From Bacteroidales bacterium (lineage in GTDB: Bacteria > Bacteroidota > Bacteroidia > Bacteroidales > CAIWKO01), in assembly GCA_035354195.1 (NCBI GenBank), contig DAOQAT010000006.1, positions 12,842 through 76,841 of the forward strand: DNA of 64,000 nt, in the 5' to 3' direction. The notes under the pieces are model-generated. The model was not told the DNA's origin. It was given only the letters and a program-made list of their open reading frames with translations, and ran no database searches. The first letter of the stretch is position 1, and each line of letters opens with the position of its first letter. The translations under genes were made by a program, and so were the position numbers. Shown here one piece after another: positions 1,730-64,000 of the stretch.

Positions 1730-4700
1730 TTATCTCAGCAATGTAACAGTACCGTTGGATCTATATTCCTTGGCGTCATAGCCATTGGCGCTGAATATAT
1801 AATAATAGATTCCGTCAGCTGCTTTCTGGCCATTAATAGTTCCATCCCATTCGCCGCCAACTTCACTCCATGAAAAAATCTGTTTTCCCCAGCGGTTATA
1901 TATCAACATTTCCTCAGTTTCGAGACCTTCGGATTCTACCCTGAATGTTTCATTTGCCCCGTCATTGTTAGGCGTGAAAACATTAGGAATGGTGACCTTG
2001 GAAGGTTCATGTACGGTGATAATTATTTGAACAGTGTCCGTACAGAAATCCGGAGCGCCGGTACTCACAATCAGCACAACGGTATATTCTCCTGTGGCTG
2101 TGTATGAGTGTGATGGGTTTGGAGAATTGGAAGTAGTGCCGTCACCAAAGTCCCAAAGGTAATCAACCGCCCCGCTTCCTGTGAAATAAAACTGAACGGA
2201 CGTTGGTAAAAAAACAGTTTGTGCATCTGCGTATGCATCAGCATTTATGGGCGAATTGGTGCTGATCGTTGCAGAACCGGTTATGGTACAATTGTTTGAA
2301 TCACTTACGGTGACTGTATAATTGCCTGTACAAAGATTTAATACCTCTGAAGTATTCGAAACGGCACCGGTCCAATTATACTGATAGGGTTGAATTCCTC
2401 CGGTAACATTTACACTAACAGAACCATCACAGCTGTTGGTACATCCTTCATTTTCGTATGTGACGTCAATATCCAGGGCTGTGGGCTGAATGATCTGCAC
2501 GGTATCATATATTATACATCCCAGGTTATCAGTAATGGTAACATAAAATGTTCCGGCAGGAACGTTTGTTGCTGTCTGTCCCGTTTGTGCAGGTGAAGTA
2601 CTCCACAAATAGGTATAAGGTGTTGATCCGTTTATCGGGTAGACAGTGGCAGTGCCGTTACTTTGTCCGTTACATAGGACATCGGTCGTTGTCGGATTGT
2701 TTGTGCTGATATTACTGACCAGTACAGTATGTAAAGTTTGTGTTGATACACAATTGTTTTCTGAAACGGTAAGTGTTATGTCGTAACTTCCGGGTGATGT
2801 CCAGGTTACCTGGTGCGGGCCCTGACCTGAGCCAGGGACAGCGCTACCTCCTGAGAATCCCCATGTGTAAGTTGCCCCCGAAGACCCTGTTCCTGTGTAA
2901 GTAACGGTAGCCGTATTACCAACGCAGTTTGGCGACGATATGGTAAAATCAGAGGTAGGAGCAGGATTAACGGTAACGGAAACTGTAAATGTAGCTCCGT
3001 TACATGTTCCTGCAGTTGGGGTTACCGTGTATACCACAGTTATCGGAGCATTCGTGGTGTTGATTAACGTGCCACTGATGTTGGCTGCGTTTGATCCTGC
3101 AGCAGTACCTGTAATTCCAGCCACAACAGGTGCCGACCAGCTATAAGTTGTTCCAGTGGGGACTACACCATTGGTTATATCTACCGGGCTTGCAGTGAAC
3201 GTGCCTTGGCTGCATATAGTATCTGTCATATTAGTGACGGCAGGTTGCGGGTTAACAGTAATGGTAACTGTAAAGGCAGCCCCTGTGCAGGTTCCTGAAG
3301 CAGGAGTTACCGTATAAACTACGTTTATCGGTGAGCTTGTCGAATTGGTTAATGTGCCGCTTATATTTGAAGCATTTGTCCCTGCAGCTGTCCCGGTGAT
3401 TCCTGCCACAACTGGCGCTGGCCAGGTGTAAGAGGTTCCGGCAGGTACAATGCCATTGGTTCCATTCAAAGGTGTTGCAGTGAAAGTTTCTCCGCTGCAT
3501 ATTGATGCTGTCATATTGGTAATAGCGGGTGCCGGATTAACAGTAACGGTTACTGTAAAAGGACTACCTGTGCATGTTCCTGTTTGGGGAGTAATCGTAT
3601 AAACCACATTTACCGGGGCATTGGTTGTATTGGCCAAAGTCCCGCTAATAGTTGCGGCATTCGAACCTGATGCAGTACCGGTGATTCCGGAAGCAACAGG
3701 TGCCGGCCAACTGTAAGTAGTTCCTGTCGGGACAACTCCATTGGTTCCATTGACCGGTGTTGCAGAGAATGTACCACCGCTGCAAATGGTCGTAGTCATA
3801 GCAGTGACAGCGGGCGCCGGATTAACCGTAACCGTGATGGTAAAAGGAGCACCTGTACAGGTCCCGGAAGTTGGGGTAACGGTATAATCAACATTGATCG
3901 GATTATCGGTTGTATTGTTTAAAGTTCCGCTAATGGTTCCTGCATTTGTTCCTGCGGCTGTGCCTGTAATTCCAGTCGCAACAGGTGCCGGCCAGCTATA
4001 GGTAGTTCCTGAAGGAACAATTCCATTGGTTCCGTTTGCTGGACTTGACGTGAATGTTCCACCACTGCATATGGTTGCAGTCATGTTGGTAATGGCAGGG
4101 ACAGGGTTTACCGTAACGGTCACCGTAAACGGGTTTCCTGTACAGCTTCCCACCTGCGGTGTGACTGTATAAACCACATTTATAGGGGTATTTGTTGTAT
4201 TGGTTAAGGTGCCGCTGATGTCTGCTGCATTGGATCCGGCAGCAGCACCGGTAATTCCGGTAACACTGGGAGCTGGCCAGCTATAGGTAGTTCCGGCAGG
4301 AACAACTCCATTGGTGCCATTCACCGGGCTTGATGTAAAAGTTCCCCCGCTGCAAATGGATGCTGTCATATTAGTCACATCAGGATTTGGATTTACAGTA
4401 ACAGTTATTTGATTTGTAGAGGTGCATCCTGGCGATATTCCCGTAACAGAATATGTTGTAGTGGTTGTTGGTGATGCCGTAACGGTTGACCCGGTGGTTT
4501 GATTCAATCCGGTAGCGGGCGACCATGTATACGTGTCAGATCCTGAAGCCGTAAGGTTGATAGACCCATTAACACAAATAGCCGGGTTGGCCGGAGCCAG
4601 GCTTACACCGCCACTGGCAAGTGAAACGGTAACATTGTCGGTAACGGTTACATCATTTCCTACACAGCAATCATAGACTACTTGTGCAGTATAGGTCGTT

Positions 4701-5709: not shown

Positions 5710-6363
5710 ATGACTAATTTAATAATTGAATTTTTAAAAGAGTTATCGGAAAATAATAATCGCGAATGGTTTGCAGCGAATAAACAAAAATATGAGGCCG
5801 CAAAGAATGCCTTTGTAAGGTTAATAACACCGGTGCATGGAGCAATTTCGGTTTTTGATGCTGAAATCAGGGGAATTAAACCACAGGACTGTATGTTCAG
5901 GATATACAGGGATGTTAGGTTCTCAAAAGATAAATCGCCGTATAAAACAAATTTTGGAGCTTATTTTAATAAAAATGGAAAGAAAATCCACAATGCAGGT
6001 TATTATTTTCACATAGAACCCGGTAATTGTTTTTTATCCGGTGGCATATACATGCCTCCACCACCATTATTAAAATCTTTACGCCAGGAAGTGTATTATA
6101 ATTTTGATGAGTTTAAAAAAATTATTTCCGGTAAGAAATTCAGAGATTTTTTTGGTGATGTCACTGGTGATAAGCTACTAAGACTTCCTCCTGAGTTTCC
6201 AAAAGAATTTCCAGGTTCGGAATACCTTAAACTTAAAGATTATTATGTTGTTCATAATTACAATCCAACTGATTTCACCGAAAAAGAACTTATCAGTTAT
6301 GTCTCCAAGGTTTTTAAAGAGGCCAAACCATTAAATGATTTTCTTAACAGGGCAGTATCCTGA
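5710..6363 (+). CDS. DUF2461 (TIGR02453) family protein
   Basis: N-terminus FLKELSENNNREWFAANKQKYEAAKNAF and the motif YRDVRFSKDKSPYKTNFGA are characteristic of this family. Confidence 0.75.
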   Translation: MTNLIIEFLKELSENNNREWFAANKQKYEAAKNAFVRLITPVHGAISVFDAEIRGIKPQDCMFRIYRDVRFSKDKSPYKTNFGAYFNKNGKKIHNAGYYFHIEPGNCFLSGGIYMPPPPLLKSLRQEVYYNFDEFKKIISGKKFRDFFGDVTGDKLLRLPPEFPKEFPGSEYLKLKDYYVVHNYNPTDFTEKELISYVSKVFKEAKPLNDFLNRAVS

Positions 6364-6414
6364 TAAAAAAATGGTCGTTTTAAAAAAAAATATTTTATTT
6401 TGCTAAAAAAAACA

Positions 6415-7194
6415 ATGACCCAAGGAATTTGCATTTTAAGTGTTGTCCCTGTGCATTCAGAACCATCTGATAAATCTGAAATAGTTACTCAACTGTTGTT
6501 TGGAGAAATGTTTCATGTGACAGAGTTGATAGGATCATGGCTCAAAATTTCCACCGTATTTGATGCATATGAAGGATGGATAGATAGAAAACAATGTTGT
6601 TTCCTGACGGCAGATGAATTCGCTGGTTTGAATAAGGATAACAGTTGTGTTGTGACGGATATTGTGCAATTGATTTTTAATAAAACCCTGAATTTTTATT
6701 TTCCTATTGTAATGGGCAGCAGTTTGCCTTCCTTGTCAGAAAAAAGCATGACCATTGCCGGTTATGAGTATGTATATGATTCGGGATGCTCAAATACATC
6801 AAACAAGACTAACGGTGCGAAAATAACGGAATATGCCAAGCATTATTTGAACGCACCTTATATGTGGGGAGGAAAAACTCCCTTTGGAATAGATTGTTCA
6901 GGTTTTACCCAGATGGTCATGAAGTTGTGTGGCATATACATTTCCCGTGATGCTGCCCAGCAATCGGTGCAGGGTAAAGCCATTGATTTTATTTCAGAAG
7001 CCATGCCAGGCGATCTTGCTTTTTTTGAAAATGATCAAAACCAGATTGTTCATACCGGTATTATTTTGTTCAACCAAAAAATTATTCACGCATCCGGAAA
7101 AGTCCGGATAGATGAAATAGACCATGAAGGGATCTTTAATAATGATCTGCATTGCTATACTCACAAACTACGTTTTATCCGGCGGTTTATATAG
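6415..7194 (+). CDS. NlpC/P60 (C40) family peptidoglycan peptidase with an N-terminal SH3-like region
   Basis: YMWGGKTPFGIDCSGFTQMV (catalytic Cys), then IVHTGIIL and IIHASG (His). ATG at 6415 is preferred over the in-frame TTG at 6400 used by the ORF track. Confidence 0.8.
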   Translation: MTQGICILSVVPVHSEPSDKSEIVTQLLFGEMFHVTELIGSWLKISTVFDAYEGWIDRKQCCFLTADEFAGLNKDNSCVVTDIVQLIFNKTLNFYFPIVMGSSLPSLSEKSMTIAGYEYVYDSGCSNTSNKTNGAKITEYAKHYLNAPYMWGGKTPFGIDCSGFTQMVMKLCGIYISRDAAQQSVQGKAIDFISEAMPGDLAFFENDQNQIVHTGIILFNQKIIHASGKVRIDEIDHEGIFNNDLHCYTHKLRFIRRFI

Positions 7195-7230
7195 AATGTT
7201 GACTGGCATAATAATTGAATCCGGAGTTTT

Positions 7231-52025: not shown

Positions 52026-52277
52026 TGCGCCTCTGCGTCTCCGCCGCGGCGGAGCGTCTCTGCGAGAACATTAAATAAAAAAATGTTGTTTTGTTTTTCT
52101 TTCCTTTCACTGCGTCTTTGCGTCTCTGCGAGAACATTAAATAAAAAAATTGACTTTTGTTTCTGTTTCCCTTTCTCTGCGTCTCCGCCGCGGCGGAGCA
52201 TCTCTGCGAGAACATTAAATAAAAAATAATGTTGTTTTGTTTTTCTTTCCTTTCATTGCGTCTTTACGAGAATAATT
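52023..52277. repeat. composite intergenic tandem repeat (about 3.5 units of 66-78 bp) carrying two copies of a GC-rich 16-bp palindrome
   Basis: The core TCTCTGCGAGAACATTAAATAAAAA starts at 52057, 52123 and 52201, with a degenerate copy at 52261. AATGTTGTTTTGTTTTTCTTTCCTTTCA occurs at 52082 and 52228. CTCCGCCGCGGCGGAG occurs at 52039-52054 and 52183-52198. Confidence 0.9.
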
Positions 52278-52278
52278 A

Positions 52279-55594: not shown

Positions 55595-58003
55595 TCATTT
55601 CAATTGAAAATGGATCGGTAACGTCATTTTGGAATTGGTGTTTTTACCATTTTGTTTTCCGGGTTTCCATTTTTTGTTCATCATTTTTACAACTCGCACT
55701 GCTTCTTCATCACAGCCACCGCCAATGCCTCTTTTCACGGTGACATTCGCGACGCTGCCGTCAGCTTTAACAGTGAATTCAATATAAACAGTACCTGAAA
55801 TTCCTTTGGTTTTTGCCTCTGCCGGATAGACCAGGTGAAGTTTAATAAACGCGTCCATAGCCGTTTGTCCTCCAATAAATTCAGGCATTTCTTCAACAGC
55901 ATTAAAAACTACCGGGCTTTGTTCTTCGGTATCATCAAGCTCAACCTTACGTTCCATAACAACACCGTGCGAAGGCATTACTTTCATGCACGACTTGTTA
56001 CCGCTGGCAGATCCATACCCGCCTACTGCATAATCGCTCACGTTTTCCGGTAATGGCAGAGGCTGTTTAACGGTAGCCTGTTTGCCTCCTTTGTTTCTGA
56101 CAATAGAATCTATGGCAATAAATGAGGTGTAGTTGGTCAGCAGGTTATATTTTAAACCCAGTCCGGTGATTTGTTCGGTAAGTTTGGGATCGTTGGCTGC
56201 ATTGTTGAAATCGTCCAGCATCCTTATCTTTTGCCTTGCCCACAAATATTTCAGCGCCCTGTTCGAAGGTGATGCTTCGGCTTTGCTGACGTCCAGCACG
56301 TATTCAAAATCTTCCTTACCGCTTTTACCTGTAATTTTAATCTTTCCAGTTGGATTTCCTTTCCATTTACCGAAAATGATCACCGGCCGCTCGGCAAGCA
56401 CATCGGGAACATTGGATGGTTCCAGATCATAAACGTCAAAACCTTCATACGTTACTTTTATATCCGTCAACACCGGGCTTTGAATATATGACCTGAATTT
56501 TTCTGCTTTAGCGTCAGCTTCTTCCTGTTTGGTTACAATAAATGATTCCCCCATACCTGCATGGGCAATGCCTTCAATCAGAAAACGGTTTACCGAAGAT
56601 CCAATGCCAAAGGCAAAGAAATTGGCTTTGTTGAGGTTGTTTTGTATCAGTTCAAACGATTCTTTTTCAACATCCACATAACCGTCAGTGGCAATGACGA
56701 ACGTTCTCGAAAACCCTTTTTGTTTTTCTACAGACAAGGCTTTTTTCAGGGCTGTCAGGAGTTCTGTACCGCCCGACCCTTGCTGTTCATCAATCATTTT
56801 TAAAGCCTTTTTCAGGTTTTCTTCGGTAGCAAAAACCGATTGCGGCATGAACATATTGGCGCATCCGGCAAACAACAATACATTGAACTTGTCCGTGGAA
56901 CGTAGGTTTTTAATAAGGTTTTCCAACACTTTTTTAGACGTTTCAATCGGATAACCGTTCATGGAACCGGATACGTCCATGATGAAAATATATTCCCTGG
57001 GAGGTATCTGGTCAACGGTGGGTTTTGGAGGTGGCTGCACCATGGCCAGGAAAAAATTTTCGCCCGGGCTAACGTTTTTGTAAAGCAAGAGCCCTGATTC
57101 TATTTTGTTGTCCGCAAGGCGGTATTGCACAATCACATCACGGTTGCCCTCCGATGTTCCTGTGTTTTTTAATTTCAGCATGGCAGAAGCCGGATTCTCG
57201 TAGTTGATCGTCATCTCGTGCGACGGGCAGCGGACATCTTTTATCGGCATGCCGGCAGCGAGGTTGATCCCGATGTTGAAGCTATAGTCTGGCTTTTCAC
57301 CGGCATGTGTGTATGGATTTGACACCCATTTGTCATTGGTAGAAGCAGTAGCTTCGGGTTTGTTTGAATAGCGCGGGCCGACGACAGTCGGATATACAAA
57401 TTCATAAACACCTTGTTCAGGGATCAAAAGTTCGGTGTAACACATTTCAATACTGATGGTGTCGCCGGGCATGATGTTGGCGACATTCATCTGAAACACG
57501 TTGGGACGCTGTTGTTCCAGCAGGGACGCGTTTTTTCCTTCACTTTTGGCCTGGTCGTATTCCTGCCGTGCCTTCTGCTTTTCCTGAATTTTGGCCGTAA
57601 TCAGCCGGTCGCCGACTTTCATTTTCATGCTGTATACGGCGGCACGCGTGGAAGCCGGGAAAATATAAATGGCTTCTATGACGTTTTTTCCACTGTTTAC
57701 ATACACCTGTTTCACGGTGACATCGGCAATAACACCGGCTATGTTCACATCGGCCGAAGTGGCTTTCAATGGCAACTGCTCGGTTTCGCTGCCTTCACTT
57801 TTTACAAAAAAGTAAGGCGACAATGTTTTGTCATCATCTTCTCCTGTTGTTTTAACAATCAGTGATTTGTTGTTTACCAAGGCCAGTTTGTCATTTGTTC
57901 TGTAACTAATTTGTGAAATGATGCTGGCCGGAATGATGAAGAAAAGAAACAGCAGTATGCAACTTACTGCCAGATTTTGATTGAAAAATTTTTGTGTTTT
58001 CAT
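55595..58003 (-). CDS. VIT domain + von Willebrand factor A domain protein fused to a C-terminal TonB_C domain
   Basis: N-terminal hydrophobic anchor/signal. VIT region (VNIAGVIADVTVKQVYVNSG...IYIFPAS...). vWA MIDAS motif FIMDVSGSM. C-terminus EEMPEFIGGQTAMDAFIKLHLVYPAEAKTKGISGTVYIEFTVKADGSVANVTVKRG...WKPGKQNGK matches the TonB C-terminal domain pattern. Confidence 0.8.
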   Translation of the reverse strand: MKTQKFFNQNLAVSCILLFLFFIIPASIISQISYRTNDKLALVNNKSLIVKTTGEDDDKTLSPYFFVKSEGSETEQLPLKATSADVNIAGVIADVTVKQVYVNSGKNVIEAIYIFPASTRAAVYSMKMKVGDRLITAKIQEKQKARQEYDQAKSEGKNASLLEQQRPNVFQMNVANIMPGDTISIEMCYTELLIPEQGVYEFVYPTVVGPRYSNKPEATASTNDKWVSNPYTHAGEKPDYSFNIGINLAAGMPIKDVRCPSHEMTINYENPASAMLKLKNTGTSEGNRDVIVQYRLADNKIESGLLLYKNVSPGENFFLAMVQPPPKPTVDQIPPREYIFIMDVSGSMNGYPIETSKKVLENLIKNLRSTDKFNVLLFAGCANMFMPQSVFATEENLKKALKMIDEQQGSGGTELLTALKKALSVEKQKGFSRTFVIATDGYVDVEKESFELIQNNLNKANFFAFGIGSSVNRFLIEGIAHAGMGESFIVTKQEEADAKAEKFRSYIQSPVLTDIKVTYEGFDVYDLEPSNVPDVLAERPVIIFGKWKGNPTGKIKITGKSGKEDFEYVLDVSKAEASPSNRALKYLWARQKIRMLDDFNNAANDPKLTEQITGLGLKYNLLTNYTSFIAIDSIVRNKGGKQATVKQPLPLPENVSDYAVGGYGSASGNKSCMKVMPSHGVVMERKVELDDTEEQSPVVFNAVEEMPEFIGGQTAMDAFIKLHLVYPAEAKTKGISGTVYIEFTVKADGSVANVTVKRGIGGGCDEEAVRVVKMMNKKWKPGKQNGKNTNSKMTLPIHFQLK

Positions 58004-58318
58004 GGCTTTGGGATTTAAAATAATTAGTATCAGAAATTATTGAATGTGGTTAAGATGTTATTTTAAAATTTTTCCATAAAATTTTTTAATAAACTTAGTT
58101 GATGGCTGAAGATCAGATATTCGTGTTAATGAAACCGGCCATTCAAAATCAGTAAAGCGTACCATTATTCAAGTTAAAGGTGGCCGGATAGTTATTGTTT
58201 TACTTTCAATTGAAATTCTATGAATTCCTCCCCGGTACTTAAATTCAAATTATGCTTTCAGGTTTGAAATTGTATTTGGCTATACACATTATTTGTATTT
58301 TTACACAAATATTTTTGA

Positions 58319-59503
58319 ATGGTACAGAATATCGAAAAAATCGAACAGTCACTCTCAAAAGTTCTGGCATACGCTGACAGCCACGATTACAAAGGCTATA
58401 ACAAATACGATGCACTCGATAGTAAATTCCTCTGGTTTATGTCCTTTGGAAGCAAGTTTTTGCGCCTGTTATACAGCCAGGTGGTGATGCGTGCCCCGGT
58501 CAATATCAGGCCGCTGTTTTTTGTCCCCCAAACCCGCAATCCGAAAGGTATAGCACTGTTTTCACTGGCTTATATGAACCGCTACAAAGCACATGGGAAT
58601 GCAAAAGATCTTGCAGAAGCCGAACTTCTACTTGATTGGCTTTTGCAAAATCCATCCAAAACAGAATGGGGAATGTGCTGGGGTTATCAGCACCCATGGC
58701 AGGATGTTGGCTTTTTTGCACCGGCCCACCTGCCCAACCGCGTGGTAACCTATTTTGTTACAACTGCTATGATGGACGCCTATGAAATTACCGGAAACGA
58801 AAAATACCTGCAAGCATCAGAATCTGCGCTTACATTTTTGTTAAAAGCTCCAAAAGTGCTGTACGAAGATGATACTATGAAATGCCTGAGTTATGTGCCT
58901 TCCGAAAAGATCAACTGGATCGTGATGGACGTTAGCATACTAACGGGATCTATCGTGGCGCGTGTAAATAAATATCTTAAAGATGAAGATCTTGCAAAAG
59001 AAGCGCGCAAACTGGTGAATTTTGTTGTCGACAAACAAACTGATTACGGCGCCTGGTACTACACGCATCCGGCCGGTGACCACCCGCGCAAACATGATAA
59101 TTACCACACCGGTTATATTGTAGACGCTATCCTTGATTACATGGACCATTCCGGCGATCAGTCTTTTATGGAGCAATACCTGAAGGGCGTGAAATATTAT
59201 AAAGAGAATTTGTTTTTACCCGATGGCGCGCCCAAATGGGCCAACGACAAGACGTATCCCTTTGATGTGCACGGATCCGCACAAGGAATTATCTCCTTTG
59301 TGAAAGCCTCAAGGTTTGATAAAAGCTATGTTGAACTGGCTGAAAAGATCGCCAACTGGGCCATAGATAATATGCAAAACCAGAAAAAAGGATTTTTCTA
59401 CTATCAGAAAACGTCGTTATTCCGTAAACCTTATACACTGATGCGCTGGTCGTGTGGATGGATGGGCCGGGGACTAAGTGAGTTGGTAAATAGTAAATTA
59501 TAA
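58319..59503 (+). CDS. conserved hypothetical protein, alpha-helical repeat (possible alpha/alpha-toroid, glycan-modifying enzyme-like)
   Basis: 394-aa ORF with no signal peptide. Recurrent aromatic-rich helical hairpin pattern (WGYQHPWQD, DYGAWYY, HTGYIVDAI, FDVHGSAQGI). The fold assignment is a guess. Confidence 0.4.
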   Translation: MVQNIEKIEQSLSKVLAYADSHDYKGYNKYDALDSKFLWFMSFGSKFLRLLYSQVVMRAPVNIRPLFFVPQTRNPKGIALFSLAYMNRYKAHGNAKDLAEAELLLDWLLQNPSKTEWGMCWGYQHPWQDVGFFAPAHLPNRVVTYFVTTAMMDAYEITGNEKYLQASESALTFLLKAPKVLYEDDTMKCLSYVPSEKINWIVMDVSILTGSIVARVNKYLKDEDLAKEARKLVNFVVDKQTDYGAWYYTHPAGDHPRKHDNYHTGYIVDAILDYMDHSGDQSFMEQYLKGVKYYKENLFLPDGAPKWANDKTYPFDVHGSAQGIISFVKASRFDKSYVELAEKIANWAIDNMQNQKKGFFYYQKTSLFRKPYTLMRWSCGWMGRGLSELVNSKL

Positions 59504-59506
59504 TTA

Positions 59507-59576
59507 AATTCAGAATGCAGAATTCAGAATGCAGAATTCGGAATTGAGAATTCAGAATAAATTTGGAATTAAATTT
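59507..59576. repeat. 14-bp-period tandem array A (unit AATTCAGAATGCAG, decaying copies)
   Basis: AATTCAGAATGCAG AATTCAGAATGCAG AATTCGGAATTGAG AATTCAGAATAAAT TTGGAATTAAATTT, between the stop at 59503 and the ATG at 59591. Confidence 0.85.
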
Positions 59577-59590
59577 AAATTTTATCTTTT

Positions 59591-59953
59591 ATGGTTGATT
59601 TTGATTTAAAATTACGAACAAGAAAATTTGCGATTCAGGTTTTCAGGTTTGCTGAAAAAATGCCGAGAACCATTGGTAATGATATTGTTTCTAAACAAAT
59701 CATTCGATCATCAAGTTCCGTTGCTGCTAATTACAGATCAGTTAATCGTGCAAAATCTCAGGCAGATTTTATTAATAAGCTGGTTATTGTCCAGAAAGAG
59801 GCTGATGAAACATTATTCTGGCTGGAATTTATATCTGATTTGGAAATTATTACAAATAAATTGGAATTAACCTCCCTGATGAATGAAAGTGAACAAATTT
59901 TATCTATTATTACAAAATCAATAATTACTTCAAAAAATAAATTTAAAAAATAG
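59591..59953 (+). CDS. four-helix-bundle protein (23S rRNA intervening-sequence protein / Avd-like family, TIGR02436)
   Basis: 120 aa. FAIQVFRFAEKMPRTIGNDIVSKQIIRSSSSVAANYRSVNRAKSQADFINKLVIVQKEADETLFWLEFI follows the family consensus (QllRs.tSi.aN..Eg..r.s..df..kl.ia..Ea.Et..wl). Confidence 0.8.
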   Translation: MVDFDLKLRTRKFAIQVFRFAEKMPRTIGNDIVSKQIIRSSSSVAANYRSVNRAKSQADFINKLVIVQKEADETLFWLEFISDLEIITNKLELTSLMNESEQILSIITKSIITSKNKFKK

Positions 59954-59997
59954 TTTGTTTTCAAAATTTCCCAATTAAAAAATAATTTACGTGTTAA

Positions 59998-60107
59998 AAA
60001 TAATTCTGAAATTTGACTTCTGATCCGCCGCGGCGGACTGACTTCTGAAATCTAACTTCTGAAATCTAACTTCTGAAATCTAACTTCTGAAATCTGACTT
60101 CTGAACT
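59998..60107. repeat. 14-bp-period tandem array B (unit CTAACTTCTGAAAT) interrupted by the palindrome TCCGCCGCGGCGGA
   Basis: AATAATTCTGAAAT TTGACTTCTGA[TCCGCCGCGGCGGA]CTGACTTCTGAAAT (CTAACTTCTGAAAT)x3 CTGACTTCTGAACT. It ends 3 nt before the ATG at 60111. Confidence 0.9.
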
Positions 60108-60110
60108 AAT

Positions 60111-61412
60111 ATGAAAAAAGTCCTTTTTATAACATACTATTGGCCGCCGGCAGGCGGTGCGCCTATCAACAGGATACTGAAGTTTTATCAATACCTGCAT
60201 GAGTTCGGCTGGGAACCTGTAATACTCACTACCGAAGGTGGCGACTTCCCTTTTGAAGATGAAAGTTTATTGAAAGAAGTTAAGCCGGAAACAAAGATAT
60301 ATCGATCTAAAGGCTTGAGCCTGCATAAAATCTTCAGCAAGGTGTCGCCGAAATCAAAAAAGAATTTTGTGCCTTATGGATTTACCGATGCCTCAAAAAG
60401 TTCGTTTATGGACAAATTGTCGCGCTGGGTGAAATACAACTTTATTCCGGATACACGCTTCCCCTGGTATTTCTCGACGGTGCGCAAGGCAGTAAAAATT
60501 ATCAATGATGAAAAAATTGACCTGATCTTCAGTTCATCACCGCCGCAGACCAACCACCTGATCGCCCGCAAAGCTGCCAGAAAGACCGGCTTGCCCTGGG
60601 TTGCCGACTTCCGTGATCCGTGGACCGATGTGTTTTGGTTGCTGAATAATTCAATTCGCTGGAAATGCATACATAATATTGACAAACGAATTGAACGGAA
60701 AACCATTGCGAAAATGGATGCCGTGATAACTGTCGGGCCTTCACTTGTCGAAATACTTCAGCGCAAGACGTCCAAAAAGATCAACCTGATCAGCAATGGT
60801 TACGATGATAAATACTTTGCGGGCTTCCATTACAAACCCAATCAAAAATTCAGGATTACTTATGCCGGCAGCCTGAGCAAAGAGCAGGACCCTGTTTGTT
60901 TTTTCAATGCGCTGGAATTGCTGAAAGACAACAAGGATTTTTATGAAAATTCAGAATTGTTGTTTCTGGGCAATTTCCCCGTGTACCTCAAAGACCTGAT
61001 TGAAAAATCATCGTATAAGGAAAAAACCATTTTTCTTCCGTATACTTTTTATACAGATTCTCTGGAAAGCATTGCTAATTCTGAATTGTTGCTCTTGATC
61101 GTCCCTAAAACCTCCGATAATAAATGCATCATCACCAGCAAACTTTTTGATTATATGGGAGCACAGCGGCCAGTGCTGGCTTTTGGCCCGACAGACGGTG
61201 ATGCAGCTGTGATCCTAAGTGATGCGGGAGCCGGCGCCATTTATGATTATCCCGATAGCCGGAATGCGGCAGATTTTATTCTTAAGAATTTTTCTGCATG
61301 GAAAAACAAAGAAGAAAGTACATTGGTTCAGAAAGAAAAAATAGAACGCTTCACCCGCCGCAACCTGACCAAACAGTTAGCTGAAATTTTTGATAATGCC
61401 GTTAACTCCTGA
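60111..61412 (+). CDS. GT-B fold glycosyltransferase (family 4 / group 1-like)
   Basis: N-terminus KVLFITYYWPPAGGAPINR, and a C-terminal nucleotide-sugar-binding-type region SKLFDYMGAQRPVLAFGPTDGDAAVIL. Confidence 0.75.
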   Translation: MKKVLFITYYWPPAGGAPINRILKFYQYLHEFGWEPVILTTEGGDFPFEDESLLKEVKPETKIYRSKGLSLHKIFSKVSPKSKKNFVPYGFTDASKSSFMDKLSRWVKYNFIPDTRFPWYFSTVRKAVKIINDEKIDLIFSSSPPQTNHLIARKAARKTGLPWVADFRDPWTDVFWLLNNSIRWKCIHNIDKRIERKTIAKMDAVITVGPSLVEILQRKTSKKINLISNGYDDKYFAGFHYKPNQKFRITYAGSLSKEQDPVCFFNALELLKDNKDFYENSELLFLGNFPVYLKDLIEKSSYKEKTIFLPYTFYTDSLESIANSELLLLIVPKTSDNKCIITSKLFDYMGAQRPVLAFGPTDGDAAVILSDAGAGAIYDYPDSRNAADFILKNFSAWKNKEESTLVQKEKIERFTRRNLTKQLAEIFDNAVNS

Positions 61413-61430
61413 GTTCAGCAATACCTCAAT

Positions 61431-61587
61431 CCTAATTCTGCCCTGTCCGGCTGATCCGCCATCTGGCGGACGTTCAGGCGGGCTTCCTAATTCTGAATTC
61501 ACATCCGCCGCGGCGGACTGCATTTTCACTTCTGCCTTCTAATTCTGCCTTCATAATTCTGAATTCATACTTCATACTTCTGCCTTC
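61431..61587. repeat. degenerate TTCTG(A/C)-type array C with embedded palindromes
   Basis: (C/T/A)(C/T)TAATTCTG occurs at 61431, 61486, 61538 and 61552. The tight 14-bp-period part is TTCTGCCTTCTAA TTCTGCCTTCATAA TTCTGAATTCATAC TTCATACTTCTGCC. It contains TCCGCCATCTGGCGGA (61455-61470) and TCCGCCGCGGCGGA (61504-61517). It fills the whole convergent spacer. Confidence 0.8.
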
Positions 61588-63945
61588 CTAAAATTCTATC
61601 CTATACGATGCCACCGGAATCAAAGGCAAATCCTGAATGTAATCAATCTCATTGGTGTATGGATTGAAGCGGATTCCGGCAATATTTTTCCGGTTCAGAA
61701 TATTTCCCAGCTCAAACGAGAATTCATGAGAACATTTTTTTGCATTCAGCCGGTAACGTAAGCGGAAATCAATTTTGAAAAAATCTTTGGTCTTTTTTGT
61801 AAAAGCCAAAGAGTCAATATACACAGCACGGTGCTGTATAGCTGATTGTTCCAAATCAATAGGAGTGTAGCGCTGCCCGCCGATCTCAACAAGCTTTAAA
61901 CTAAAACCGATGATGCTGTTTTTCTTCTTTCCGATCTTAAATTCTTTCCCGCCAAGCAAATTAAAAGCATAATTGCTGTTATACCTGGTGTTTCGTTTAA
62001 CACCGTTTGCATCAAAATATTTTGAGTCGTACACCGAAGCGGTGAACAAAATATAATACCCGTGGCTTAGGAATTTTTCGACCGTCAGTTCCGTACCATA
62101 GTTTCTCCCGCTTCCTTTATTGACAAGGATTTTGTTGGCAAAGGCATTATCGGAATTACTGAAATTCACCAATGATAAAACCGGATTGTCAGTCGCAACA
62201 GGTATTTGCCGTAAATCCTGATAATAGATTTCTAATTTAGATCGCCAGAATTCTGAGAACAACCAGTCATAGCTTAGAACAGCCTGATAACTTTTTGTGA
62301 AGTCAAGAGAACTATTCGGGTGAGTGATCTCGCTGCCGGAAAGAACCTCCGCATAATATATTTGCGAAGGTTGTGTCTGTCCGTGAATCCCGAAGCCCAG
62401 GGTTAATGCGTGCCGGTTGTTTATGGCCCATCGGAATGCAAGCCGCGGCTCAAAACTCAACCGGCCGTTGTTCAGCAGGTACAAAGCATGAAATCCCGGA
62501 GTTACAGAGAATTTTTCATTGATGGTATACTTGTACTGCATATACGCCTGTAAGAGATTGATGCTGCCCTTGTAATCATTGACGGTGTGTTTGGTTTGTC
62601 CGCCATTGTATGTATAATAATAGGAGTTGTCTGTAAAATTCTGATTTTTGAAAATGATACCGGTCCTGATGATGTGCCTGACATTTATTTTGCTGTTGAA
62701 CAACACCGACACGATATTATTTTGCTGGGTTGTTGACAACCTGTTCAGTTGATATACCTTGTAATCACTGCCTGTTGAATCTTCCTTATAATCGGGATTG
62801 AACCAGGACGAAGAAACAATGGTTTTAAAGTACGAACTTTTTCCTACGGGGCAGAACCATGTCAAGGCACTCACAGCGGTGCGCGAACCTGAAACATCAC
62901 CAAAACGGTCGCCATCATTAACCCATTCGCCTGAATCTTTGGGAGCTTTGTAAATGGCTTTGCTGATGCCGCCAACACCGAACAAGGAAATGTACCCTTT
63001 CTTCAACGGAAAATTCAGTTTAAACGAAAGGTCCTGAAAATCGGGTGATGCGTCAACAATTTTTATCCCGATCAATCGTAATAAAGCCACCGTAGAATAA
63101 CTGTACGAAGCCAGATAGGAAGCTTGTTTGCCTTTAACAAAAGGGCCTTCGGCGCCGACTTCCACGCCTCTTGCCCCGATCTGAGCGATGTATTCCCGCT
63201 TCTCATTATTTCCGTTCCGGAGTTTCAGGTCGAAGATGGCCGCCGTAGCATTGCCGTATTCCGGGGCAAAGGCGCCCGACAGGAAATCAGAATTGTCCAG
63301 AAGGTTGTTGTTGATCATGCTGATGGCGCCACCTGAGCTGCCAACTTCGGCAAAGTGGTTCGGGTTGGGAATTTCAACGCCGTCGAGCCTCCATAAAATT
63401 CCCATTGGAGAATTTCCCCGGACCACGATATCGTTGCGTTCGTCGGAAGCCACAGAAACACCTGCAAAATTTGAAGCCATGCGCGAAATATCGCCCCATG
63501 CGCCGGCATATTTGTTGGTTTCTTCCACAGAAAACTGCCGGGTGCTGATCACCGACATCTCATTGATGTTGTTTTGTTTCTCGTTTTTTGCGGAGATGAC
63601 CACTTCGTTGCTGGTATATATTTTTTCATGGAGCCCGATGTTTAAAACCATTTCATGTGCTGAGCTCACCTCAATATTGTTCAACACGTATTCATCATAA
63701 CCCAAAAAGGACACTTTCAGGCTTTGCCGGCCTATCGGAACATTTTCCAGGCGAAATTTTCCATTTAAATCTGTGGTGGCTCCTTTAATAGGGTTTGAGT
63801 TGACTAATATTACGTTTGCCCCGGGCAGCGGTGCTTTCGTTTCATTGTCGGTAACAGTTCCGCGTATGGTTTGAAATAAATTCTGGGAAAACCCTGAGCA
63901 CGAAAGAAATAATAACAGAAAAAGAAAAATTACACGGGTTTTCAT
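61588..63945 (-). CDS. TonB-dependent receptor with an N-terminal carboxypeptidase-regulatory-like domain
   Basis: ATG at 63945 gives MKTRVIFLFLLLFLSCSGFSQ. IRGTVTDNETKAPLPGANVILVNS...GKFRLENVPIGRQSLKVSFLGYDE. Plug motif IVVRGNSPMGILWRLDGVEIPNPNHF. Terminal ...ASYRIEF. Confidence 0.85.
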   Translation of the reverse strand: MKTRVIFLFLLLFLSCSGFSQNLFQTIRGTVTDNETKAPLPGANVILVNSNPIKGATTDLNGKFRLENVPIGRQSLKVSFLGYDEYVLNNIEVSSAHEMVLNIGLHEKIYTSNEVVISAKNEKQNNINEMSVISTRQFSVEETNKYAGAWGDISRMASNFAGVSVASDERNDIVVRGNSPMGILWRLDGVEIPNPNHFAEVGSSGGAISMINNNLLDNSDFLSGAFAPEYGNATAAIFDLKLRNGNNEKREYIAQIGARGVEVGAEGPFVKGKQASYLASYSYSTVALLRLIGIKIVDASPDFQDLSFKLNFPLKKGYISLFGVGGISKAIYKAPKDSGEWVNDGDRFGDVSGSRTAVSALTWFCPVGKSSYFKTIVSSSWFNPDYKEDSTGSDYKVYQLNRLSTTQQNNIVSVLFNSKINVRHIIRTGIIFKNQNFTDNSYYYTYNGGQTKHTVNDYKGSINLLQAYMQYKYTINEKFSVTPGFHALYLLNNGRLSFEPRLAFRWAINNRHALTLGFGIHGQTQPSQIYYAEVLSGSEITHPNSSLDFTKSYQAVLSYDWLFSEFWRSKLEIYYQDLRQIPVATDNPVLSLVNFSNSDNAFANKILVNKGSGRNYGTELTVEKFLSHGYYILFTASVYDSKYFDANGVKRNTRYNSNYAFNLLGGKEFKIGKKKNSIIGFSLKLVEIGGQRYTPIDLEQSAIQHRAVYIDSLAFTKKTKDFFKIDFRLRYRLNAKKCSHEFSFELGNILNRKNIAGIRFNPYTNEIDYIQDLPLIPVASYRIEF

Positions 63946-64000
63946 TGAAATAGTCAGGAATTTGCCAATCAAAGTTAATAAAAAACTACGATTTTTTAGC

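Follow-up and report, generated by a model that had tools for sequence, protein, structure and literature searches.

Inverted heptamer arrays enclose a four-helix-bundle protein gene in a Bacteroidales operon and recur around most PF05635 genes examined across phyla

Genes and arrays at the locus

The subject of this study is a 64-kb window of a Bacteroidales genome (contig DAOQAT010000006.1), the whole stretch of DNA that was analysed, and within it a small gene for a four-helix-bundle (4HB) protein that lies between arrays of heptanucleotides; all unlabelled coordinates are window positions. Three genes are co-directional: a GH88-like upstream cistron (58319..59503, plus strand, 394 aa; Pfam PF07470, 28.8 bits), the 4HB gene (59591..59953, plus strand, 120 aa), and a downstream cistron for a GT4-family glycosyltransferase (60111..61412, plus strand, 433 aa; PF13439 and PF13579). 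They are followed by a convergent gene for a TonB-dependent receptor (61588-63972, minus strand), and a gene for a VIT/VWA protein is a further neighbour. The 4HB protein belongs to the 23S rRNA intervening-sequence protein, or S23p, family. It scores well above the cutoffs of both PF05635 (1.1e-15, 58 bits; cutoff 33.8 bits) and TIGR02436 (2.2e-22, 79 bits; cutoff 24 bits), and matches PDB entry 2RLD, which has five chains and is probably the BT_0352 protein of Bacteroides thetaiotaomicron, at 7e-17.

The 5′ array (array A; 59507..59566, plus strand) consists of about eight heptamers of the TNCAGAA/TTCGGAA/TTGAGAA type with a GAAT core. Between 59507 and 59562 its units are as given in the initial annotation, AATTCAGAATGCAG twice, then AATTCGGAATTGAG, then AATTCAGAATAAAT, and they resolve into the heptamers TTCAGAA, TGCAGAA, TTCGGAA and TTGAGAA (Tandem Repeats Finder, TRF: period 7, 7.4 copies). 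An AT-rich leader, read from the sequence, connects array A to the 4HB start codon (59567..59590, plus strand). On the other side of the gene, the first units of the 3′ arm (AATAATTCTGAAATTTGACTTCTGA; 59998..60023, plus strand) are followed by a GC palindrome, TCCGCCGCGGCGGA (60024..60037, plus strand), and then by the main part of array B (60038..60107, plus strand), five near-identical 14-nt units, each composed of the heptamers CTTCTGA and AATCTAA. These units read CTGACTTCTGAAAT, then CTAACTTCTGAAAT three times, then CTGACTTCTGAACT (TRF: period 14, 4.6 copies, 98% matches). This composition agrees with the earlier description, as does the position of the 3′ end of the array, 3 nt 5′ of the GT4 start codon at 60111. 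Array C (61484..61587, plus strand) is a solo array, oriented like B and built of the heptamers TTCTGCC, TTCATAA, TTCTGAA and TTCATAC (TRF: period 14, 3.2 copies, 87%; period 7 at 76%). It runs directly up to the receptor gene's stop codon at 61588, where it had been said to end, and it contains a second copy of the palindrome (61504-61517), which had correctly been placed in both B and C.

The arrays had been described as having a 14-bp period, with TTCNGAA in every unit, and as replacing all normal intergenic DNA. The 14-mers are present in array B, but the basic period is 7 nt, as TRF finds for array A, and the 14-mer is a pair of heptamers. TTCNGAA does not occur in every unit, since array C has only two copies; in the window as a whole the motif occurs 61 times (26 ± 5 expected), with 12 occurrences within the three arrays. 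The statement about intergenic DNA was too strong, because the stretches 59567-59590, 59954-59997 and 61413-61483 are not array. No other 7- or 14-nt periodic arrays were found in the 64-kb window. The locus was assembled independently in at least seven metagenomes, and contigs from JGI, ENA and Logan samples carry identical sequence; the arrays are therefore real, and the assembly artefact that had been considered for them is ruled out.

Together, arrays A and B make up a long, interrupted inverted repeat, with A as the 5′ arm, B as the 3′ arm and the 4HB gene between them. When compared by hand, the reverse complement of unit A matched unit B at 10 of 14 positions, in agreement with the inversion of A relative to B around the gene that had been noted before. 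Between the first units of the 3′ arm and array A, complementarity is 74-81% (inverted-repeat pairs I4 and I7). In an RNA fold of 59490-60112, A pairs with B in register and leaves the 4HB open reading frame (ORF) in the loop (z = −3.5), with helix blocks of 7, 4, 7, 3, 7, 3 and 7 bp that are common to the minimum-free-energy and centroid structures. The A-B duplex has an energy of −41.6 kcal/mol (z = −3.9), whereas the orientation control, A against the reverse complement of B, gave z = 0.0. Array C is also complementary to A (inverted pairs I1-I3, 78-85%), and the A-C duplex reaches −45.5 kcal/mol (z = −6.0). The fold recurs in L107, an orthologous locus whose 4HB protein is 75% identical, with different and longer arms (z = −4.6), and the terminal stem is still closed in the orthologue L013, where the spacers measure only 52 and 28 nt.

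The sequence TAAATTTG at 59558-59565 fits the −7 promoter consensus of Bacteroidetes, TAnnTTTG, and an internal promoter between array A and the 4HB start codon is possible on this resemblance. A scan of 58000-64000 against Rfam at E ≤ 1 returned no matches, rRNA included.

Variation among samples and relatives

Contigs of the same strain differ in array B. Most samples have three of the central CTAACTTCTGAAAT units, and contigs from ERZ27257449 and ERZ27257423 have two. Aligned with the window over 9,410 bases, contig L001 shows no mismatches and a single gap, which corresponds to one 14-bp unit of array B. Because this unit is the sole difference in 9.4 kb, array B must mutate much faster than the surrounding DNA, and the variation in unit number that the initial annotation had anticipated is present. 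Arrays A and C did not vary across the same-strain contigs. One contig, L004 (ENA ERZ27257423 k141_1318716), was left out from inside GT4 onward; at its positions 6013-7227 the sequence switches within GT4 to unrelated, GC-rich DNA, most likely through chimeric assembly.

This variation bears on the idea that array B is a slipped-strand contingency switch, in which gains and losses of units would raise or lower how strongly the surface-glycan gene GT4 is expressed. Phase variation is well known among glycosyltransferase genes, only 3 nt stand between array B and the GT4 start codon, and its 14-bp indel is all that separates the two samples over 9.4 kb. However, the tract is not part of a coding sequence, and a scan that did not include Bacteroidetes promoters detected no promoter across it, with sigma-70-like matches at or below the shuffle expectation. 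Arrays A and C are invariant in the same contigs, and in other taxa the same arrays precede housekeeping genes (see below). Heptamer number also varies in the 23S rRNA intervening sequence (IVS) found in Coxiella burnetii, that is, inside an rRNA, where a switch of this kind would be impossible (Warrier et al. 2016, PMC4990558). We consider a contingency switch very improbable.

The order GH88-like, 4HB, GT4 is kept in relatives whose 4HB proteins are 88, 85, 75 and 65% identical to that of the window; the GH88-like upstream neighbour was found in L013, L103, L106, L107 and, from its gene map, the P0016 locus. Because the trio is conserved, the 4HB gene is an old resident of the operon rather than a fresh insertion, and GT4 lies outside any mobile cassette. 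Every relative with 65-100% 4HB identity has the element at this position, and no empty site was seen among them. Its arms differ in length. Across orthologues, the spacer upstream of the 4HB gene measures 52, 87, 130 or 205 nt and the downstream spacer 28, 88, 96 or 157 nt; the heptamer family stays constant, with NNCAGAA-type heptamers upstream of the 4HB gene and TTCTGNN-type heptamers downstream. The arrays change length quickly, in whole repeat units.

Array C has a different history. In L107 only 12 nt separate GT4 from the convergent receptor gene, so the 175-nt spacer with array C is specific to the lineage of the window. Array C has a 19-mer, CTGCCTTCATAATTCTGAA, in common with the B arm of the relative L106. 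The initial annotation had proposed array-bounded cassettes that move four-helix-bundle and glycosyltransferase genes; for GT4 this fails, since the trio is syntenic in relatives with 65-88% 4HB identity and L107 has no array C.

PF05635 genes and heptamer arrays elsewhere

A scan of a genome collection with an alignment of 4HB relatives yielded 80 loci, of which 69 were usable for tests of the flanks. They span Bacteroidota, Cyanobacteria, Planctomycetota, Verrucomicrobiota, Acidobacteriota, Nitrospirota, Chloroflexota and Desulfobacterota, among others. Candidates for cultivable carriers are Flavobacterium granuli DSM 19729 (L102), F. laiguense LB2P30 (L093), Roseivirga seohaensis SW-152 (L095) and Roseithermus sacchariphilus (L100). 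Uncorrected RNA duplex energies of 130-nt flanks were dropped, since GC content and length confounded them; complementarity was scored instead by local alignment, against shuffled sequences, non-cognate pairs and the direct orientation. The upstream and downstream flanks were reverse-complementary at 59 of the 69 loci (z > 4 vs. shuffles). Cognate flanks scored much higher than non-cognate ones (mean 17.0 vs. 9.1; Mann-Whitney p = 7e-18), and the inverted orientation outscored the direct one (Wilcoxon p = 2e-7). Both flanks also carry the 7-nt period: lag-7 identity reaches 0.65 in the upstream flank and 0.59 in the downstream one, compared with about 0.4 at lags 6 and 8. From locus to locus the heptamer changes and the complementarity stays, as in the pairs GGATTTA/AATCCTA, CGGAATG/ATTCCGC and GATTTGT/AATCGTA; other arms are built of GTACGAA/TTCGTAC, GGTAAAT/ATTTACC or GGTGATC. 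Arrays are concentrated about 5-fold near the gene, with 42 of the 67 detected arrays lying within 150 nt of the 4HB ORF, in 13% of the sequence. Thus the same two-arm layout, built of heptamers, surrounds most PF05635 genes across phyla, and the suspected linkage of the arrays to TIGR02436/PF05635 genes proved strong.

The 4HB gene and the next gene downstream share a strand in 57 of 65 cases, and the 4HB gene and the next gene upstream in 60 of 66; the median spacers are 57 and 67 nt, respectively. Such co-orientation is expected of an element that has no promoter and would depend on read-through from its host. The downstream neighbours checked with Pfam include enolase, NADH-dehydrogenase chain 4L (nuoK type), a class II tRNA synthetase, Dxr, a HisF-family protein of histidine biosynthesis and a protein with an RNA methyltransferase domain. 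Since the same architecture precedes housekeeping genes, the arrangement has no specificity for glycan loci, and the earlier glycan-specific readings, a glycosyltransferase switch or cassettes of glycan loci, are not supported.

In L050 (63-123 and 1911-1962) and L084 (1883-1937), spacers 0.5-2.4 kb before the 4HB gene hold solo (AAATCTT)n arrays whose heptamer belongs to the family seen in the local arms, in a manner analogous to array C. The gene after 4HB in both encodes NADH-dehydrogenase chain 4L (by Pfam for L050; the L084 protein is near-identical). By eye, L073 resembles these two loci, and the gene upstream of 4HB looks nuoJ-like, also by eye only. The spacer in L050, L073 and L084 is either the site of an ancient insertion or else a recurrent target. 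In L100 (2363-2500), L030, L042, L058, L082 and L094, ORF finding turns the upstream arrays into extra residues at the N-terminus of the 4HB protein, MQNAECRMGNVECRMGNGECRMRN being one example. Translated arrays of this kind probably account for low-complexity 'hypothetical proteins' and misplaced start codons in annotations.

We also approached the association from the side of the arrays. Scanning metagenome contigs for three copies of TTCTGAA at 14-nt spacing gave 120 loci, comprising 77 arrays of the heptamer type and 43 unrelated 14-mers. Among arrays well inside their contigs, an inverted partner was present within 700 nt for 16 of 46 heptamer-type arrays and for 0 of 23 others; the remaining 30 heptamer-type arrays were solo. 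The order 5′-(TTCAGAA)n...(TTCTGAA)n-3′ was favoured over the opposite by 22:4. For pairs with an upstream partner, counted over all 120 loci, the loops were mostly 1-37 nt long, some measured 80-173 nt, and three measured 380-460 nt. Each of these three gene-sized loops contained a PF05635 ORF, and the 173-nt loop, in L157, contained a PF05635 fragment (about 3330-3570 of the oriented copy). A hidden Markov model (HMM) built from a narrow 4HB alignment had placed a 4HB gene at only 1 of the 120 array loci and missed a subfamily with the signature WQKAxxL...NIAEG; it was replaced by iterative search and Pfam, which recovered PF05635 in every gene-sized loop. The association is one-directional, in that nearly all 4HB genes have arrays and most arrays of the TTCTGAA type have no adjacent 4HB gene. 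Heptamer hairpins that lack an ORF, or retain a remnant of one, occur in L157, L058 (4129-4302), L082 (1032-1216) and L165 (1080-1260). They suggest a decay series that leads from 4HB-bearing elements to bare hairpins.

The solo arrays raise the question of whether the repeats are neutral, arising by slippage in AT-rich spacers and hitch-hiking near 4HB genes with no function. In many bacterial genomes the heptanucleotide is the most frequent unit of long simple-sequence repeats (Mrazek 2007, cited in PMC4679880), length turnover is fast, and 30 of the 46 internal heptamer-type arrays have no partner. Slippage, however, would not give reverse-complementary arms around one gene family at 59 of 69 loci, would not keep the arms paired while the heptamer changes, and would not concentrate the arrays near the 4HB ORF. 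The complementarity of the flanks and the concentration of the arrays strongly disfavour the neutral reading, to which we attach very little weight.

The GC palindromes form a smaller feature of the window. The copy at 60024 has the local unit (TGACTTCTGA) directly repeated on its flanks and folds as a local hairpin within the B arm in RNA folds; it was not found in the B arms of the relatives L106, L107 and L013. The copy at 61504 forms a hairpin followed by CTGCATTTTC and is terminator-like, and a variant GC hairpin, TCCGCCATCTGGCGGA, lies in the same spacer between GT4 and the receptor gene (61455..61470, plus strand). The palindrome occurs twice more (52040 and 52184) in a spacer between two minus-strand genes (52026-52278), which is itself a tandem repeat of about 66-72 bp in three copies; there, too, the local unit is directly repeated, over a short length, on the two sides of each palindrome. 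Judging by its placement, TCCGCCGCGGCGGA appears to be a small hairpin with repeats as its insertion sites. A separate 285-bp tandem repeat at 2957-4402 (5.1 copies, 71% identity) probably encodes repeated protein domains.

Relation to rRNA intervening sequences

The initial annotation knew of no described element with this organisation, but the 23S rRNA IVS in Coxiella burnetii, the one relative studied by experiment, has it. This IVS is 428 nt long and carries an S23p ORF within a 28-bp stem of terminal inverted repeats, which is cut in vitro by both Coxiella and E. coli RNase III (PMC4990558). Three tandem GACAGAT heptamers, or two in some strains, stand just before its ATG, and the 5′ cut falls where the first heptamer begins (PMC4990558). 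Paired inverted arrays have been described in Geobacter metallireducens, where eight opposite-strand pairs of arrays, each of five tandem heptanucleotides MTYCTGA, were catalogued as 'class 3 global regulator sites' in the spacers of co-directional genes such as moaA/mosC and proB/proA; their authors guessed at binding of IHF or HU (Aklujkar et al. 2009, PMC2700814). The MTYCTGA consensus is the heptamer of array B, and the pairing on opposite strands is that of A and B. Unlike the arms in the window, the members of the pair Gmet_I301A/B are about 100 bp apart, too close to enclose a 4HB ORF.

The window element resembles the ORF-bearing 23S rRNA IVSs (helix 45 in Coxiella; Leptospira, Brucella and Haemophilus) in several respects. 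Like them, it has a PF05635/S23p gene inside a stem of terminal inverted repeats, with I4 and I7 paired in the folds, and it has no evident promoter; an IVS is co-transcribed with its host RNA, as the window element may be. Tandem heptamers stand just 5′ of the ATG in Coxiella and in array A, and unit number varies between strains in both, in the 5′ heptamers of Coxiella (three vs. two) and in the 14-bp units of the 3′ arm here (three vs. two). The differences lie in setting and build. Whereas rRNA IVSs sit in helix 25 or 45 of the 23S rRNA, the window element sits in an operon spacer between protein-coding genes; its arms are longer and almost wholly made of heptamers, and array C and the GC palindromes are present. 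RNase III cleavage has been shown for the Coxiella IVS and would be expected for the window element. With no rRNA match in Rfam and with protein-coding genes on either side, the element is IVS-like but is not an rRNA IVS. The recurrence of heptamer-built arms around 59 of 69 genes of the family suggests that elements known from rRNA also sit inside ordinary operons.

We therefore favour the reading that the window element is an S23p-type IVS embedded in an operon, where it forms an RNA stem that is a probable substrate of RNase III, and we put the probability of this reading at about one half. The GH88-like, 4HB and GT4 genes would be read through as one transcript, and arms A and B would form a double-stranded RNA stem that RNase III would cut, as it cuts the Coxiella IVS. 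Cleavage would part the 4HB RNA from the upstream message and from that of GT4, leaving GT4 with a very short processed leader; the uncut stem would bury the stretch immediately before the GT4 start codon. Replication slippage would lengthen and shorten both arms, and since any register would still pair, the heptamer build and the turnover in length would follow; selection would act only for enough pairing between the arms. Array C may have arisen later, in this lineage only, as a copy of a B-type arm that came to lie, together with two GC hairpins, between GT4 and the receptor gene, where it could be an alternative partner for A or simply a terminator region.

Several observations weigh against the operon IVS reading. 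The mismatches in the arms show no excess of G:U over A:C (66 vs. 79), and in the absence of such a bias selection at the RNA level is not told apart from selection at the DNA level. Most mismatches are transversions, which makes the stems imperfect. A GAWT core at 7-nt spacing is found in 40 of 54 5′ arms across phyla, at any GC content, and within 5′ arms GATT is enriched 9.7-fold and C makes up only 10% of bases. Selection for pairing alone would not predict this core, the C-poor 5′ arms or the polarity of the arrays; the core and the polarity hint at a sequence-specific partner or at common descent. If TAAATTTG were the promoter of the 4HB gene, A and B would lie on separate RNAs. Most heptamer arrays in metagenomes are solo or lack an ORF, and Rfam has no family that matches the element. 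Finally, RNase III processing is known from the rRNA member only, and would apply to the window element and the other non-rRNA members by analogy.

Some of the same observations would suit a mobile element acting at the DNA level, in which the arrays are the terminal inverted repeats of a small selfish 4HB cassette inserted in spacers, and the arms serve DNA recombination or hairpins. The lack of a G:U bias is compatible with this, as is the same architecture in unrelated spacers (those of enolase, chain 4L, dxr, histidine-biosynthesis and class II tRNA synthetase genes). The ORF-less inverted pairs, the PF05635 remnant in the 173-nt loop and the solo arrays look like a decay series, array C has the 19-mer of the L106 B arm and yet a new location, and transposition of IVSs has long been suspected (PMC4990558, discussion). 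However, the element sits at the same position in all relatives with 65-100% 4HB identity, with no empty site seen, and does not qualify as a transposable element or a miniature inverted-repeat transposable element. There is one copy in 64 kb (no second 4HB gene was found in the window), no recombinase is present among the neighbouring genes, and no target-site duplication was identified, although no rigorous or systematic search for one was made. The arms vary between loci, unlike a conserved transposase site, and insertion alone does not predict the strong co-orientation with neighbouring genes. A mobile element of this kind is unlikely.

The GAWT core bears more directly on the possibility that the arrays are iterons, that is, phased heptamer sites that bind a pentameric 4HB protein, or else IHF/HU, CsrA or S1, and so regulate or package the locus. 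The enrichment of GATT, the scarcity of C in 5′ arms and the preferred array order (22:4) are in keeping with such sites, and regulator binding was also what the Geobacter authors proposed for their paired MTYCTGA arrays (PMC2700814). The 4HB protein shares a homologous four-helix-bundle fold with Avd of diversity-generating retroelements (PMC10053308). Two PF05635 ORFs from metagenomes match the bAvd-like family PF22296 weakly, below cutoff, and the window protein does not match it. Unlike an Avd module, the window locus has no reverse transcriptase and no template or variable repeat among its annotated neighbours, and we know of no Avd genes enclosed by heptamer arms. About a quarter of the arms lack the GAWT core (e.g. 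GTACGAA, GGTAAAT and GGTGATC) and are yet complementary, the shared core could be explained by common descent, and solo and ORF-less arrays also occur away from any 4HB gene. The dimeric DNA-binding site at 14-bp phasing that had first been suggested fits poorly with arms whose sequence is specific to each locus and whose complementarity is conserved. Iterons are, on balance, quite unlikely.

Other heptanucleotide repeats are less similar. TAACTGA direct repeats, which end just before start codons, are known from Beggiatoaceae, Cyanobacteria and Bacteroidetes (MacGregor 2015, PMC4679880). Together with cyanobacterial STRR sequences and long simple-sequence repeats, they share with the window heptamers in spacers, variable copy number and an end near a start codon; they differ in being one fixed, direct heptamer, with one inverted set among 170 and no enclosed gene or link to PF05635 reported. 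In a figure legend, '23S rRNA IVP' is named among proteins newly tied to CRISPR adaptation modules or arrays (PMC10910872), and one may speculate that flanking heptamer arrays contribute to such array-based associations. Within the full-text literature, with subscription journals outside this coverage, we found no statement that non-rRNA PF05635 genes generally have inverted heptamer flanks. As far as we found, this rule for the family is undescribed.

More broadly, PF05635 genes and their heptamer arms could form one widespread class of promoterless 'operon intervening sequences' in many phyla, which would be excised at a double-stranded RNA stem and of which the 23S rRNA IVS would be a special case. 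A pentameric, Avd-related 4HB protein would recognise the GAWT repeats for processing, protection or spread, and the ORF-less hairpins and solo arrays would be relics. We offer this wider picture tentatively, as a possibility about which we have more doubt than confidence. The arrays in the window should in any case not be taken as a glycan-specific switch. That most members outside rRNA carry such arms inside operons, housekeeping ones included, predicts RNase III processing sites in many operons, and it explains a recurrent artefact of annotation, in which translated arrays lengthen the N-terminus by residues such as MRNAECGMRN. The PF05635/TIGR02436 family is very large, with about 10^5 PF05635 genes in reference genomes, and 23S rRNA IVSs and S23p ORFs have gone without explanation for about 30 years. 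One testable picture would join these rRNA elements with the orphan genes annotated as 'four helix bundle protein' and with intergenic heptamers that have had no explanation, such as the Geobacter pairs and the solo arrays.

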